This document shows, in pieces, positions 1,081 to 7,599 of a DNA stretch of 11,686 bases. The number at the start of each line of letters is the position of its first letter. Positions within the stretch are counted from its first letter, which is position 1. The translations under genes and the position numbers were made by a program. The notes under the pieces were generated by a model. The model had not been told where the DNA came from, did not search any database, and saw only the letters and a program-made list of their open reading frames with translations. Source of the DNA: Octopus sinensis (lineage: Eukaryota); assembly GCF_006345805.1 (NCBI RefSeq), contig NW_021826923.1, positions 1 to 11,686 of the forward strand, read 5' to 3'.

Positions 1081-2402
1081 TCTCTGTCTCTCTTTCTTTC
1101 TCCCCCCTCTCTCTCTCTCTCTATATAATATATATGTATGTACACATATATATACAAACATACACATATATATAACTCATGTATTCATATATGTGTTTAT
1201 ATATATACATACATACATATCATATATGCATACTATAACATACATATATCTACATACATATACATACATATATATATATACAACAATACATACATATATA
1301 TTACATATTATACATACATACATACATACATAATATACATACATACATATCATATATTACATACATACAATATATACATATTAATAATATCATACTATAT
1401 ATTATAAATATATATACATATATATACATATATACATACATATATAGATAATATATATATACATATATATACATAGATATAACTAATATATCCATACTAT
1501 ATACATATAATATAGCATATATATACATATATAACATACATATATATGCATATATATATAGATATACATATATATACATATATATACATATACTTATATA
1601 CATATGCACATATAAATATATACTATATGCATATATATATACATATATATATACATATTAATACATACATAGATACATATATATATAATACATATATACA
1701 TATATATATACATACATACGCATATATATATATATATACATACATACGCATATATATACATACATACATACACATATACATACGCATATATATACATACA
1801 TACATACACATATACATACGCATATATATACATACATACATACACATATACATACGCATATATATATATACATACATACATACATACATACATACATACG
1901 CATATATATACATACATACATACACATATACATACGCATATATATACATACATACATACATACGCATATATATACATACATACATACATACGCATATATA
2001 TACATACATACGTACATACATACATACATACATATGCATATATATACATACATATGCATATATATACATACATATATATGCATATATATACATACATACA
2101 TATGCATATATATACATACATACATATATATGCATATATATACATACATATATATGCATATATATACATACATATATATGCATATATATACATACATATA
2201 TATGCATATATATACATACATACATACATATATATGCATATATATTACATACATACATATATATATATGCATATATATACATACATACATATAATATATA
2301 CATATATATACATACATATATATATAAATGTATACATACGTTTATATGTACATACATTTAGATACATAACTATACACAAACAGACACGGGCACACACACA
2401 TA
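1081..2402. repeat. (CT)n followed by a ~1.3-kb (TA)/(ACAT) low-complexity satellite with higher-order units
   Basis: Directly visible. 36-bp period (TACG at 1745, 1781, 1817, 1853) and 24-bp period (TATGC at 2129, 2153, 2177, 2201). Confidence 0.95.
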
Positions 2403-2923
2403 TTTAGGTAGGTTGGATAGAATCGCAGCCGTTTCATCTTGAAGCGCATTATTTACAATCCGGCGAATAGTTGTTGTTCTTGCTGTATTGATGTGAGGTG
2501 CTTATTAGAGTTGAAAATTCTGGAAACATTGTTTGCAGAATTATTATACAACAAAACAGGAATTTGGAAAAGTTTTGGGCACTATTTATTCACCATTACA
2601 CATGTTTCAATTACTAATAGGAATTACGTTGTTTTACATCCCTTACATGTCTATTTAACATGTAAAACACAATAATTCCTATTAGCAATTGAAACATGTG
2701 TAACGGTGAACAACACCCCAAAGTTTTCCAAATTTCTGTTCTGTTATAAGATCGAAAAAGGCAGGTACGGCTATGTAAGTGCTACCGCAGGACAGCTGTA
2801 AGGCTCCCGGTTCGATAATAGTATGAGTGAGGAGTCTAACACGGGTCGCGTGTGAGCGTGTATATGTTAAATAAAATGTGACAACAAAGCCAAGGCAGTG
2901 TGAAATTTCTAGGACATCTTATA

Positions 2924-3157
2924 TATTTCTTTATTGCCCACAAGGGGCTAAACATAGAGGGGACAAAGAAGGACAGACAAAAGGATTAAGTCGATTACAT
3001 CGACCCCAGTGCGTAACTGGTACTTTATTTATCGACCCCGAAAGGATGAAAGGCAAAGTCGACCTCGGCGGAATTTGAACTCAGAACGTAACGACAGACG
3101 AAATACCGCTACGCATTTCGCCCGGCGTGCTAACGTTTCTGCTAGCTCGCCGCCCTA
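2924..3157 (-). mobile_element. tRNA-derived SINE family B (MetaSINE/MESC-like central domain), full length with 17-bp TSD
   Basis: Minus strand: GGCGGCGAGCTAGCAGAAACGTTAG head, B box GAGTTCAAATTCC, body GACTTTGCCTTTCATCCTTTCGGGGTCGATAAA..GTACCAG. Perfect direct repeat TTCTAGGACATCTTATA at 2907-2923 and 3158-3174. Confidence 0.93.
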
Positions 3158-3186
3158 TTCTAGGACATCTTATAAAGAGAAAGGTA

Positions 3187-3233
3187 ATCTTACAGCTGTT
3201 TCAGAGACATAAAAATATTCCATCATCAGAGAC
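3187..3233 (-). ncRNA. Minimal type I hammerhead ribozyme motif (GUA cleavage triplet)
   Basis: Minus strand reads GTCT-CTGATGA-T-GGAATAT-TTTT-ATGTCTC-T-GAAAC-AGCT-GTA-AGAT: stem I GUCU/AGAU, CUGAUGA core, imperfect stem II, GAAA, palindromic CAGCUG stem III. Confidence 0.72.
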
Positions 3234-3426
3234 GATATGAGAGAGTTAGATCGAAGGAAATAGTAGAGTTCAGTACAAGATGTTATTTTGGGAAGGGAGA
3301 GATCTCCCCCAATCGTTTAGACCTATACCATTTTTCTTCCTCCTAACATACTTATCTATTCTATTCTCAAAATTTCATTTACACTACAAGGTTCTTTTGA
3401 ATGAATACCACATGAAATTAATACCT

Positions 3427-3648
3427 ATTTCTTTTTACTACCCACAAGGGGGCTAAACACAGAGAGGACAAACAAGGACAGACAAACGGATTAAGTCGAT
3501 TATATCGACCCCAGTGCGTAACTGGTACTTATTTAATCGACCCCGAAAGGATGAAAGGCGAAGTCGACCTCGGCGGATTTTGAACTCACAACGTAACGCA
3601 GACGAAATACCGCCAAGCATTTCGCCTGACGTGCTAACGTTTCCGCCA
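3427..3648 (-). mobile_element. SINE family B, slightly 5'-truncated, same tail as 2924-3157
   Basis: Colinear with 2924-3145 (cccacaagggg..ggacagacaaa..ggattaagtcgatta..cgaccccagtgcgtaactggtac..cgaccccgaaaggatgaaaggc..gtcgacctcggcgga). An 18-bp near-perfect direct repeat lies at 3409-3426 and 3710-3727. Confidence 0.92.
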
Positions 3649-3777
3649 CCTTTCTACCTTCCTTTTTTTCTTCTGTTGAAGAACAAACCATTTGTTGCTG
3701 CAATGTGTACACATGGAATTAATACCTGCTCACTATCCATTTGTAATAACAATATTGACTCCTACCAGAACTTACAT

Positions 3778-4161
3778 GGAAGGAAGCACTCCGTCGGTTA
3801 CGACGACGAGGGTTCCGGTTGATCCGATCAACGGAACAGCCTGCTCGTGAAATGAACGTGTAAGTGGCTGAGCACTCTACAGACACGTGTACCCTTAACG
3901 TAGTTCTCGGGGATATTCAGCGTGACACAGAGAGTGACAAGGCCGGCCCTTTGAAATACAGGTACAACAGAAACAGGAAGTAAGAGTGAGAGAAAGTTGT
4001 GGTGAAAGAGTACAGCAGGGATCACCACCATCCCTGCCGGAGCCTCGTGGAGCTTTAGGTGTTTTCGCTCAATAAACACTCACAACGCCCGGTCTGGGAA
4101 TCGAAACCGCGATCCTACGACCGCGAGTCCGCTGCCCTAACCACTGGGCCATTGCGCCTCC
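3778..4161 (-). mobile_element. tRNA-derived SINE family C, full length with 11-13-bp TSD
   Basis: Minus-strand head GGAGGCGCAATGGCCCAGTGGTTAGGGCAGCGGACTCGCGGTCGTAGGATCGCGGTTTCGATTCCCAG has A and B boxes. (CC)AGAACTTACAT is repeated at 3765-3777 and 4160-4172. Its 5' part is homologous to 10421-10582. Confidence 0.93.
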
Positions 4162-4295
4162 AGAACTTACATACCATGTACAAGAAGCCTTTTTACCCAT
4201 TCTACACAACACATTCCTTGAATAATGGAACAGCAAATTTAACATCCAACATATATGTATATATTTATTCTTACATTTCTCTTTATCCTTCCTAT

Positions 4296-4471
4296 ATCTC
4301 TCCCTTTCCAAAATAACTTCTATTGAATTCTACCATTTCCTTCTATTTAACTCTCTTATATCGTCTCTGATGATGGGATATCTGTTATATCCCCGAAACA
4401 GCTGTTAAGACTACTTCTCTCTAATGTCCCAGAAATTCCATACTATCTTGGCCTTGTTGACTCATTTTATT

Positions 4472-4476
<5 letters not shown>
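4296..4476 (+). repeat. Right arm of inverted repeat (pseudo-LTR copy)
   Basis: Reverse complement matches 2865-2918 plus 3175-3303; it ends in a (CA)n tract. Confidence 0.9.
4363..4411 (+). ncRNA. Minimal type I hammerhead ribozyme motif, with one extra base at the cleavage site
   Basis: GTCT(4363-66)-CTGATGA(4367-73)-T-GGGATAT(4375-81)-CTGTT-ATATCCC(4387-93)-C-GAAA(4395-98)-CAGCTG-TTA-AGAC(4408-11). Perfect 7-bp stem II and 4-bp stem I; GTTA instead of GTA. Confidence 0.72.

Positions 4477-4512
<36 letters not shown>
4474..4512. repeat. (CA)n microsatellite
   Basis: Pure AC run. Confidence 0.97.
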
Positions 4513-4513
<1 letters not shown>

Positions 4514-4586
4514 CCTTAACAAAAATAGTGCTAAGAGTAACCTGAAGTTTCTTAAACTATCATCGGATAGTCCGATGAACTAACTT

Positions 4587-4690
4587 GTATGAATGAATGT
4601 ATATATGAATGTATGTATGTATGTATGTATGTATGTATGTGTGTGGGTGTGTGTGTATGTATGTATGTATGTATGTGTGCGTGTATGTTA
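4587..4690. repeat. (ATGT)n/(GT)n microsatellite
   Basis: Directly visible. Confidence 0.93.
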
Positions 4691-4804
4691 GTATACACAC
4701 AAACATAATTACCCCCACACAAATATGGACTACAACAGGATTTGCATTACACTCTGAACGAATACCAGCGGGTAGAGTGATCGGGCGCCTAACGCTTCCG
4801 CTTC

Positions 4805-5658: not shown

Positions 5659-5660
5659 CA

Positions 5661-5823
5661 GGTGGCGAGCTGGCAGAATCGTTAACACACTAGGCGAAAT
5701 GCTTAGTATTTTGTCTGCCGTTACGTTCCGAGTTCAAATTCCGCCGAGGTCACTTTGCCTTTCATCCTTTCGGGGTCGATAAATTAAGTACCAGTTACGC
5801 ACTGGGGTCGATGTAATCGACTT
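5661..5823 (+). mobile_element. SINE family B, 3'-truncated (tail missing)
   Basis: GGTGGCGAGCTGGCAGAATCGTTA..GAGTTCAAATTCCGCCGAGGTC..CTTTGCCTTTCATCCTTTCGGGGTCGATAAATTAAGTACCAGTTACGCACTGGGGTCGATGTAATCGACTT; reverse complement of the 2924 and 3427 copies. Confidence 0.92.
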
Positions 5824-6890
5824 TTGCTTTGCATTTGTACAAGTTAACTCCAAGTCTTACCCAGAAACCTCAGGAGACAACAAGTTAGAAGTTTATGTTG
5901 GTCTTATGCCTATGGTGCCATATATTTGGTTTTGTACATAGTATTATTCTAGAGAATGTTTAAGAAAAATAAGATAATTATGAGTTGAGATTGCATAGTT
6001 AGTATTTTACGTAGGATATGGGCAGTTCCCATGAGCACTATCTTTTGAATTTCTGCCATTTTGGGGTTTCCTGGTATCTGAGCTAGGTAGCAATCAACCT
6101 CTTTTGTTATCATTCCATATTTTGCTAATTTCTTTATACTTGCTCAGTTTTTGGTAGGTCGTGACAGATACGTTTATATCGATTGGGACAGTCATGATTT
6201 TTGTCTGAAATCTTTCAATTTAATGTCTGGCCTATTTGCATCTGTCTTTCTGTCAGTTTGAACGGTGAAGTTCCATAGGAGTGAGATGTGATCATTTTCA
6301 AGCACTGGAAGTGGTTTGTGTTCCCACCAGTTTTTATCACGTGGCTGGTCCAGATTTTGTAAATTACTTAGTGAATATATTGTGCTGCTCTATCATGCCT
6401 ACTGAGATACTCTGTTGGCGGGAGGCTACCGTTCTTTAATATGTTGGCCTGGTAGTTTCTTGTAGGTAAGCATTGATCTTGTGCTGCTATGATAAACCCT
6501 TGTGTTTTTGATTTTAAGCCAGAAGCTTGATGGGTAAGAGCTTTATCAACATCGGCATTATCCGCTCTCTTTGTGTATTTGCCATTGTGAGGTTTTTCTT
6601 GTCATTTATCAGTAAGAATATCTAAGGCAGCAGTTTTAGCACGGATTTTCATACGCTTAGCTTTTTTGTGCTTGATTCTAGTACGTCTAATTCTGGAATT
6701 TGTTGTATTTGGAATTCACTTATATATTTCTTTGCCTGTTTTATTGCTGCGTATGATACTTTCTTGTTTTCATGTTTTGAGATAAGTTTTAACATCCAGT
6801 CCTCAGAGTTTTCCAGGTAGGTGTCTAGGCCAATTGTGGAAATCTTCATTGTTAATTCCAGTTGTAAAAGTCCACGGCCTCCCTCTTTAC
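5824..6890 (-). mobile_element. Decayed 3' fragment of an R4/Dong-like non-LTR retrotransposon (post-RT region, restriction-like endonuclease, 3' UTR), family 1
   Basis: Manual minus-strand translation across stops and frameshifts: KEGGRGLLQLELTMKISTIGL..; SGLKSKTQGFIIAAQDQCLPTRNYQANILKNG; PTEYLSRHDRAAQYIH; KNWWEHKPLPVLENDHISLLWNFTVQTDRKTDANRPDI; MTVPIDINVSV..QKLSKY; EIQKIVLMGTAHILRKIL. These are the RHD, PD and KxxKY motifs of RLE endonucleases. Confidence 0.85.
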
Positions 6891-7221
6891 TTTACCGCAC
6901 AACAGCCAGTGGACATATCTGGCCACATTGTCGTGTCTCCTTTTATATTCGCGTTGTGCGAGCTCACTGACAATATGGCTTATACTTTCTCCCTTTTCAG
7001 AGCCCATCCTACACTGTGGCGAGTCATTGCTTTTATTAATGTGATATTTGGGGTAGTTTGTACTGAGAGCTTGTTCTTAAGCGCTGCACACTAACGCCTC
7101 AGCGGGCCCTTTTAAGCCTCCTTTTTGCAGCCATTGCCAGGTCCTATTCCAATCAATCCCATCTTTGTTCTTCAAGAACTGATTGTGCATTTTCTAGCCC
7201 TGCCAGATTTTCTTCCTCTCC
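6891..7221 (-). mobile_element. Internal fragment of a second, divergent R4/Dong-like retrotransposon (zinc-knuckle/RHD region), family 2
   Basis: Minus strand: ERKKIWQG*KMHNQFLKNKDGIDWNRTWQWLQKGGLKG/AEALVCSA*EQALSTNYPKYHINKSNDSPQCRMGSEKGESISHIVSELAQREYKRRHDNVARYVHWLLCGK. Confidence 0.8.
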
Positions 7222-7235
7222 TCTCTCTGGTCAAA

Positions 7236-7418
7236 GACGGGGAACTGGTTGAATCGTTACTGCGCCGGACAAAGTGCTTAGCAGCAATTCGTCCGTCTTT
7301 AGCTTCTGAGTTCAAATTTCGTCAAGGTCGACTTTGCCTTTCATCCTTTTGGACTCAATGTAATCGTCTCACCCACTCCCACCAAATTTTGGGACTTGTG
7401 CCTATAGTAGAAAGGATT
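7236..7418 (+). mobile_element. SINE family B, diverged, with internal deletion and a different 3' tail
   Basis: GAATCGTTA..CGCCGGAC..GAGTTCAAATTTCGTCAAGGTCGACTTTGCCTTTCATCCTTT, then a jump to ATGTAATCG; tail ..GACTTGTGCCTATAGTAGAAAGGATT. Confidence 0.85.
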
Positions 7419-7430
7419 GTTGTTATTAGC

Positions 7431-7599
7431 ACGGCGAGCTAGCAGAATCGTTACCGCGCCGGACTCCAAATACCACCGGGGTCACTTTGTTTTTATTTTT
7501 TCAGGGTCGATAAAATAAGTACCAGTCGGGTACTGGGGTCGATGTAATCGACTATCCCTCTCGCCCGAAATTGCTGGCCTTGTACCAAAATTTGAAACC
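7431..7599 (+). mobile_element. SINE family B, diverged, with a deletion in the tRNA head and a third tail type
   Basis: GGCGAGCTAGCAGAATCGTTACCGCGCCGGAC joins a degenerate B box; GGGTCGATAAAATAAGTACCAGT..CTGGGGTCGATGTAATCGACT; tail ..GAAATTGCTGGCCTTGTACCAAAATTTGAAACC. Confidence 0.85.

Follow-up and report, generated by a model that had tools for sequence, protein, structure and literature searches.

The window analysed here, the whole stretch of 11,686 nucleotides, is repeat-rich animal DNA composed of microsatellites, SINEs and transposon fragments, and between positions 2866 and 4476 it holds two inverted arms around a short spacer, the left arm being split by one SINE and the spacer by two (Table 1). 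Self-BLAST of the window aligned 3158-3303 with 4434-4296 (81.8% identity, 148 columns) and 2850-2917 with 4491-4424 (82.4% identity, 68 columns). Excision of SINE1 together with one copy of its target-site duplication yielded a single continuous left arm that aligned to the right arm at 167/205 columns with a local score of 206, whereas none of 500 dinucleotide shuffles scored above 30. In a global alignment of the arms (188 vs 181 bp), 156/179 aligned bases are identical (82% of columns), 18 of the 23 differences are transitions, five gap runs are present and the divergence is JC 0.141 ± 0.030. The inverted repeat of about 180 bp and about 80% identity that a sequence-only reading had placed at 2865-3303 and 4296-4476 is therefore real and lies where it was placed, with 82% identity after removal of SINE1. 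No third copy of the arm was found in the window, since a model built from the two arms scored only its own training copies (E<1e-20; best non-training match E 0.93 among 10 rows). Scans of GTDB with the arm motif and with a SINE motif each returned 0 loci, as expected for animal DNA; 0 sites came from a scan for bacterial promoters, which has no bearing on such a host.

Table 1. Coordinates of the inverted-arm unit, its insertions and its flanks in the window
Feature	Position	Strand	Details
TG-rich left flank	2835..2865	.	reads as CA-type along the strand of the arm; candidate optional tail
Left arm, putative inverted pseudo-LTR copy	2866..3303	-	188 bp without SINE1 and one duplication copy; 3′ end faces left
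SINE1, inside left arm	2924..3157	-	perfect 17-bp target-site duplication 2907-2923 / 3158-3174
Left-arm hammerhead motif (predicted)	3187..3233	-	helix I 3233-3230/3190-3187; core from 3229; GUA site intact at 3193-3191
Near-palindrome	3295..3310	.	16 bp, 7/8 pairs; perfect 8-bp core 3299-3306; centred at 3302/3303, left arm inner end
Spacer piece 1	3304..3426	+	without recognisable coding trace; element body or host DNA
SINE2	3427..3654	-	SINE1 family (90% over 222 columns); 5-bp duplication candidate only
Spacer piece 2	3660..3777	+	open frame with terminal YQNLH trace; final 13 bases are the SINE3 duplication
SINE3	3778..4159	-	tRNA-like head also at 10421-10590 (91%); perfect 13-bp duplication 3765-3777 / 4160-4172
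Possible GIY-YIG C-terminal trace	4184..4223	+	one 1-nt shift; E codon 4184-4186, L-N codons 4218-4223
Right arm, putative 3′ pseudo-LTR	4296..4476	+	181 bp
Right-arm hammerhead motif (predicted)	4363..4411	+	core from 4367; palindromic helix III 4398-4405
(AC)19.5 microsatellite	4474..4512	+	adjoins right arm

Architecture of the inverted-arm unit

The arms point outward, head-to-head, a polarity that is set by the ribozyme motif in each of them. Both finish in the same sequence and then continue into a CA-type repeat on their own strand, which makes the left flank TG-rich, the right one being (AC)19.5; this pattern would arise if the empty site had been a symmetric TG/CA junction, or if the CA tract was part of the template. 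Homology past the arm ends is at microsatellite level only (reached by 92/1000 shuffles), and the 30 AC-rich nucleotides outside the left arm are able to pair back onto its end, with a stability matched by 32/200 shuffles (z −1.0). No target-site duplication of the whole unit stood above chance, the best candidate being 6 bp long, a length reached by 101/300 shuffles. A near-palindrome is centred exactly where the left arm ends internally; of 2070 centres in 2400-4470 only two, this one included, score so well.

The sequence-only reading correctly counted three SINEs in the unit and underestimated the length of the SINE-free spacer, which is 364 bp rather than about 300 bp. Pairs of SINEs in the window are separated by JC 0.075-0.107, compared with 0.141 for the arms; the gap is within about two standard errors, and the greater age of the arms agrees with the nesting of the SINEs in the element. 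Elsewhere in the window, further copies or pieces of the SINE1/SINE2 family lie on the opposite strand at 5660-5823, 7238-7352 and 7432-7553 (75-90%), and could form long-range double-stranded RNA with SINE1 and SINE2. The segment 10421-10860 begins with a 170-bp tRNA-like head as in SINE3 (91%) followed by a different body, and may represent either the 5′ end of a LINE or another SINE sharing that head.

Hammerhead motifs and the affinity of the arms

Each arm carries a minimal type I hammerhead motif. It comprises, in order, a lead-in rich in U, helix I (4 bp), the core, a single unpaired base, helix II (7 bp, bearing a bulged C), GAAA, and helix III, whose 2 bp are capped by a palindrome of 4 nt. 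The helix III 8-mer has a self-pairing energy of −11.1 kcal/mol. Helices I and II of the right arm are entirely Watson-Crick; in the left arm, where helix III is likewise palindromic, helix II holds three wobble or changed pairs besides its bulge. Each arm departs once from the PLE consensus, the left by closing helix II with G-U and not G-C, the right by one additional U at the cleavage site, and both ribozymes are predicted to be defective. All 13 modelled pairs are kept in both arms (26/26 cells, compared with 15-54% in slid registers), and in the two-arm alignment three pairs differ by a wobble and one differs on both of its sides; a pairing shuffle control was uninformative with only two rows (244/500).

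A loose hammerhead core pattern gave 12 overlapping matches, a number reached by 1/200 shuffles, at three sites of the window: 3229 (-), 4367 (+) and 6806 (-). The last of these fails the helix tests and was rejected. We then used a structural descriptor composed of the core, a helix II of at least 4 bp with one bulge, a palindromic helix III, UH and a helix I of at least 3 bp. The first version of this descriptor disallowed the bulge and matched neither arm nor 6806; the bulge was allowed post hoc, with the sequence already seen. The bulge-allowing descriptor matched the left arm and 0/300 shuffled windows, and with one additional cut-site base it matched both arms, 2/300 shuffled windows and 0/5000 shuffled arms. 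No hammerhead family appeared among the 23 Rfam rows at E<=10 over 2400-4700, and the whole window had 0 Rfam matches at gathering level; the miRNA rows obtained are a reflection of the 2544-2749 palindrome and of microsatellites. The minimum-energy folds of the arms do not give the hammerhead fold (z −1.35 and 0.66), and the left-arm helix II does not fold in isolation. A start of an open reading frame at the helix II ATG was considered and rejected, the frame not being conserved between the arms. An 11-base match to the left-arm helix III and cut site at 2792-2802, 64 bp outside the left arm, has no core upstream and no model match, and is probably due to chance.

Hammerhead motifs are a published hallmark of Penelope pseudo-LTRs (PMC4209133). 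The arm motif agrees with the PLE consensus in the PMC4209133 supplement, where the D. willistoni row has the same 4-nt palindromic loop and the same A at the cut site. According to the same source, PLE hammerheads likely work as dimers and have low activity in vitro, and truncated PLEs carry pairs of motifs on opposite strands 100-700 bp apart; with the SINEs removed, the two motifs here are about 540 bp apart. The motifs share with the minimal hammerheads described for metazoan PLEs (Cervera and de la Pena 2014) the U-rich lead-in, the 4-bp helix I, the additional core base before helix II, the 7-bp helix II and the small palindromic helix III, a variant of D. willistoni, Aedes and Saccoglossus. 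They differ from these by the left closing pair, by the additional cut-site U of the right copy and by the bulge in helix II, which is described for D. virilis.

The arrangement of the unit resembles that of canonical EN+ PLEs of the Penelope/Poseidon type, such as Pen2_Av of Adineta vaga and PAc of Anolis, in having a predicted hammerhead motif within a pLTR of about 190 bp, an inverted, shorter-or-equal 5′ copy placed head-to-head, and a junction palindrome, a feature that is common in these elements and not universal. An inverted 5′-truncated copy is a common PLE arrangement (PMC8557442), and inverted pLTRs of 181-212 bp, head-to-head, with junction palindromes and sometimes without duplication, have been reported (PMC3846280). 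A further likeness is the ATG at the helix II base, which partly follows from the core consensus. In Anolis Poseidon, reverse transcription begins 111-118 nt into an ORF whose ATG is at this position (PMC11167929); the arms here end 104-108 nt past the helix II ATG, a resemblance only, given that the frame is not conserved. In full-length canonical members a telomerase-like RT occupies the same ORF, the GIY-YIG endonuclease is C-terminal and directly precedes the 3′ pLTR, a target-site duplication is often lacking or concealed by microsatellites, and a tail of 30-40 bp at one end is optional. The unit has no RT, no direct 5′ pLTR, no duplication above chance and no clear tail.

The unit is very probably a Penelope-like remnant with an inverted pseudo-LTR, an interpretation that agrees with the sequence-only reading and is supported mainly by features on which that reading had not drawn, namely the hammerhead motif in each arm, the head-to-head orientation and the near-palindromic junction; the motifs are the strongest evidence for this origin. 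A MITE or another DNA-transposon derivative with long terminal inverted repeats, in which the ribozyme-like and peptide traces would be chance, is very improbable. Such a derivative would account for inverted repeats of similar length around a short spacer, for the palindromic MITE-like element adjoining at 2544-2749 and for the blank protein and Rfam searches, but it leaves unexplained a full hammerhead geometry found in 0/300 shuffled windows and 0/5000 shuffled arms, and no superfamily-specific target-site duplication rises above chance.

Octopus Naiad elements (Naiad_Obim, Naiad_Ovul) are PLEs in the likely host that have microsatellite targets and inverted structures; unlike the unit, they are without a canonical hammerhead, their endonuclease is N-terminal and its E-to-N spacing is longer. 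The canonical-type hammerhead and the 3′ position of the possible endonuclease trace set the unit apart from Naiads. Non-LTR retrozymes are likewise hammerhead-bearing non-coding repeats related to pLTRs (10.64898/2026.07.22.740005), but they are tandem on one strand, whereas the two copies here are on opposite strands. This relationship bears on another explanation, a non-autonomous PLE-derived family in which an inverted arm, a short body and an arm were moved whole by a Penelope partner, the unit being one of many copies. A compact 730-bp unit with both cis ends present would suit such a family, and cis-acting pLTRs sufficed to move unrelated DNA in A. vaga (PMC3846280). The window, however, holds no second copy, the arms are 14% diverged and a tandem arrangement is absent, and we consider this explanation improbable.

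Possible endonuclease traces in the spacer

The peptide traces noted in the sequence-only reading are present, in frames starting at 3652, 4160 and 4161 that require two frameshifts for read-through; their claimed likeness to the end of GIY-YIG endonucleases proved only weakly above chance. A motif defined by the spacing from E to N occurs once in the spacer, on the + strand, 72 bp before the right arm. It also occurs in 93/3000 shuffles, or 20/3000 for a stricter version, and it was picked post hoc. Its E-to-N distance, used as a proxy for a Penelope/Poseidon or Nematis clade, is 12 codons. Fig. S2 of PMC8557442 shows the same distance for PoseidonFr, Perere, Pglau and three rows of Nematis, as well as for one Chlamys row and the terminon rows, and longer distances for D. 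virilis Penelope, Hydra, Neptune and Naiad.

Pfam returned 0 families for 4/4 spacer pieces. A homologue search with a 42-aa spacer frame gave 0 matches, a decayed short query having little power; the same frame had 0 matches at E<=0.001 among 1.84 billion representatives, and its best Atlas score was 0.78 (no relative). A GIY-YIG endonuclease trace is thus plausible but weak. The post hoc choice of motif and the lack of a protein relative of the spacer count against a single PLE insertion as the origin of the unit, as do the blank Rfam result for a hammerhead, the missing target-site duplication and a spacer piece 1 without coding trace.

Spacer piece 1 was compared with a decayed direct pLTR, a candidate that was rejected as 468 and 294 of 1000 shuffles score equally. 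Its reverse strand matches the third spacer piece at a level reached in 23/1000 shuffles, in one of six such tests. The SINE-free body had no tblastn match to 35 LINE and transposase proteins.

Insertion history and surroundings

Overall, we favour, with reasonable though not high confidence, a reading of the arms as the 3′ pseudo-LTR and its inverted copy, left by one old 5′-truncated PLE insertion that was later hit by three SINEs. The simplest history would be one truncated insertion with both ends derived from the 3′ end of the element, followed by decay and the three SINE insertions. Judging from published PLE work, the GIY-YIG endonuclease of the element may have nicked an AT-rich TG/CA microsatellite, after which RT would have started on the RNA at a point lying downstream of the ribozyme core by about 105 nt, copied the pseudo-LTR together with the terminal part of the endonuclease gene, and halted early. 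The opposite strand would have gained its own copy of this 3′ end, by a second priming on the other nick or by fold-back, and the two copies would have been joined at a short palindrome. The ribozyme of the parent element would have cut a tandem precursor RNA as a dimer through its self-complementary helix III, probably aided by protein. This scheme can be compared with purified Poseidon from Anolis, which cuts and extends both strands and is predicted to be a dimer, and whose ribozyme needs protein in order to cut but is not required for insertion in vitro (PMC11167929). An alternative published route is self-priming with an antisense RNA as template (PMC3846280). The present copy lacks RT, its putative endonuclease remnant is broken and each of its ribozymes has a putative defect, so that it is predicted to be inert.

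Alternatively, two short 3′ ends of Penelope elements, perhaps from two subfamilies, may have inserted independently into CA/TG microsatellites separated by a few hundred bases, the two facing opposite ways and spacer piece 1 being host DNA. The 23/179 base differences and five gap runs between the arms, the CA-type tract at the end of each and the absence of a duplication bracketing the unit would fit this explanation, and purified Poseidon nicks its own pLTR region (PMC11167929). Pairing provides a further point in its favour: among helix-strand positions, 5/23 differ between the arms, with pairing kept at all five, an outcome that a simulation of neutral decay from one template gives in 950/37325 or 1681/36839 matched trials, depending on the assumed ancestor (P 0.025-0.046). 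This statistic, however, consists of five changes only, in a structure drawn with both arms in view. Moreover, the near-palindrome sits exactly at the inner junction, and a head-to-head unit is a known product of single insertion (PMC8557442, PMC3846280). A single insertion is more likely, and we regard two insertions as unlikely.

The pair-preserving differences are a small post hoc signal hinting that two templates fit better than one, which is compatible either with two insertions or with one event involving two RNAs. In the latter case a dimeric Penelope enzyme would, in a single integration, have cut the symmetric centre of a TG/CA microsatellite and primed both strands on two RNAs from two subfamilies, the cDNAs being joined head-to-head; we give this a rather small chance. 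If true, the arms would preserve ribozyme covariation of two lineages. Inverted Penelope ends would then be a record of integration from two templates and not of self-priming, a question open to genome-wide counting. It would matter more if it held across many copies, because the formation of inverted Penelope ends is stated as open in print (PMC11167929, PMC8557442). The papers listed by a literature search on Penelope with twin priming and inverted ends deal with mammalian genomes, judging by title.

The host is likely an Octopus, since the SINE-derived peptide of 8873-8974 matches an O. bimaculoides protein at 28/34 residues. Taking half the arm distance and a calibration in which JC 0.09 corresponds to about 25 My (PMC13282606), we infer an insertion age of roughly 20 My, provided that the arms were identical at insertion and that the Octopus calibration holds. 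For O. vulgaris, 30 recently active Penelope families are listed (PMC13282606), and the locus would be one dead copy, among the many Penelope families of its genome, of an already described structure. It provides an example of a PLE hammerhead that is likely from a cephalopod; the consulted part of the published alignment (PMC4209133) has no cephalopod row, and among the papers listed by a literature search none describes such a hammerhead, judging by title or the start of the abstract.

Other repeats surround the unit. The segment 2544-2749 is self-palindromic, with two 94-bp arms that are 78% alike, a short loop and TA-rich ends, and looks like a fold-back MITE. At 5994-7223 (-) a LINE with RT, presumably Dong/R4-like, is represented by two 3′ pieces that overlap in part; they match PF00078 proteins of 1125-1137 aa, one over about aa 865-1000 at 58-63% identity and the other over aa 862-1137 at 25-31%. 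A broken gene at 8184-9373 (-), split by SINE sequence at about 8600-8970, is 53-68% identical to unnamed 455-563-aa proteins without a Pfam domain and probably encoded a DNA transposase, presumably Chapaev-like. Two copies of a further SINE, 82% alike, lie at 8792-8968 and 195-372, and their translation gives the O. bimaculoides match, the only clue to the host that a search provided. Finally, a 37-bp unit is repeated 2.1 times at 10902-10979, with 80% matches.
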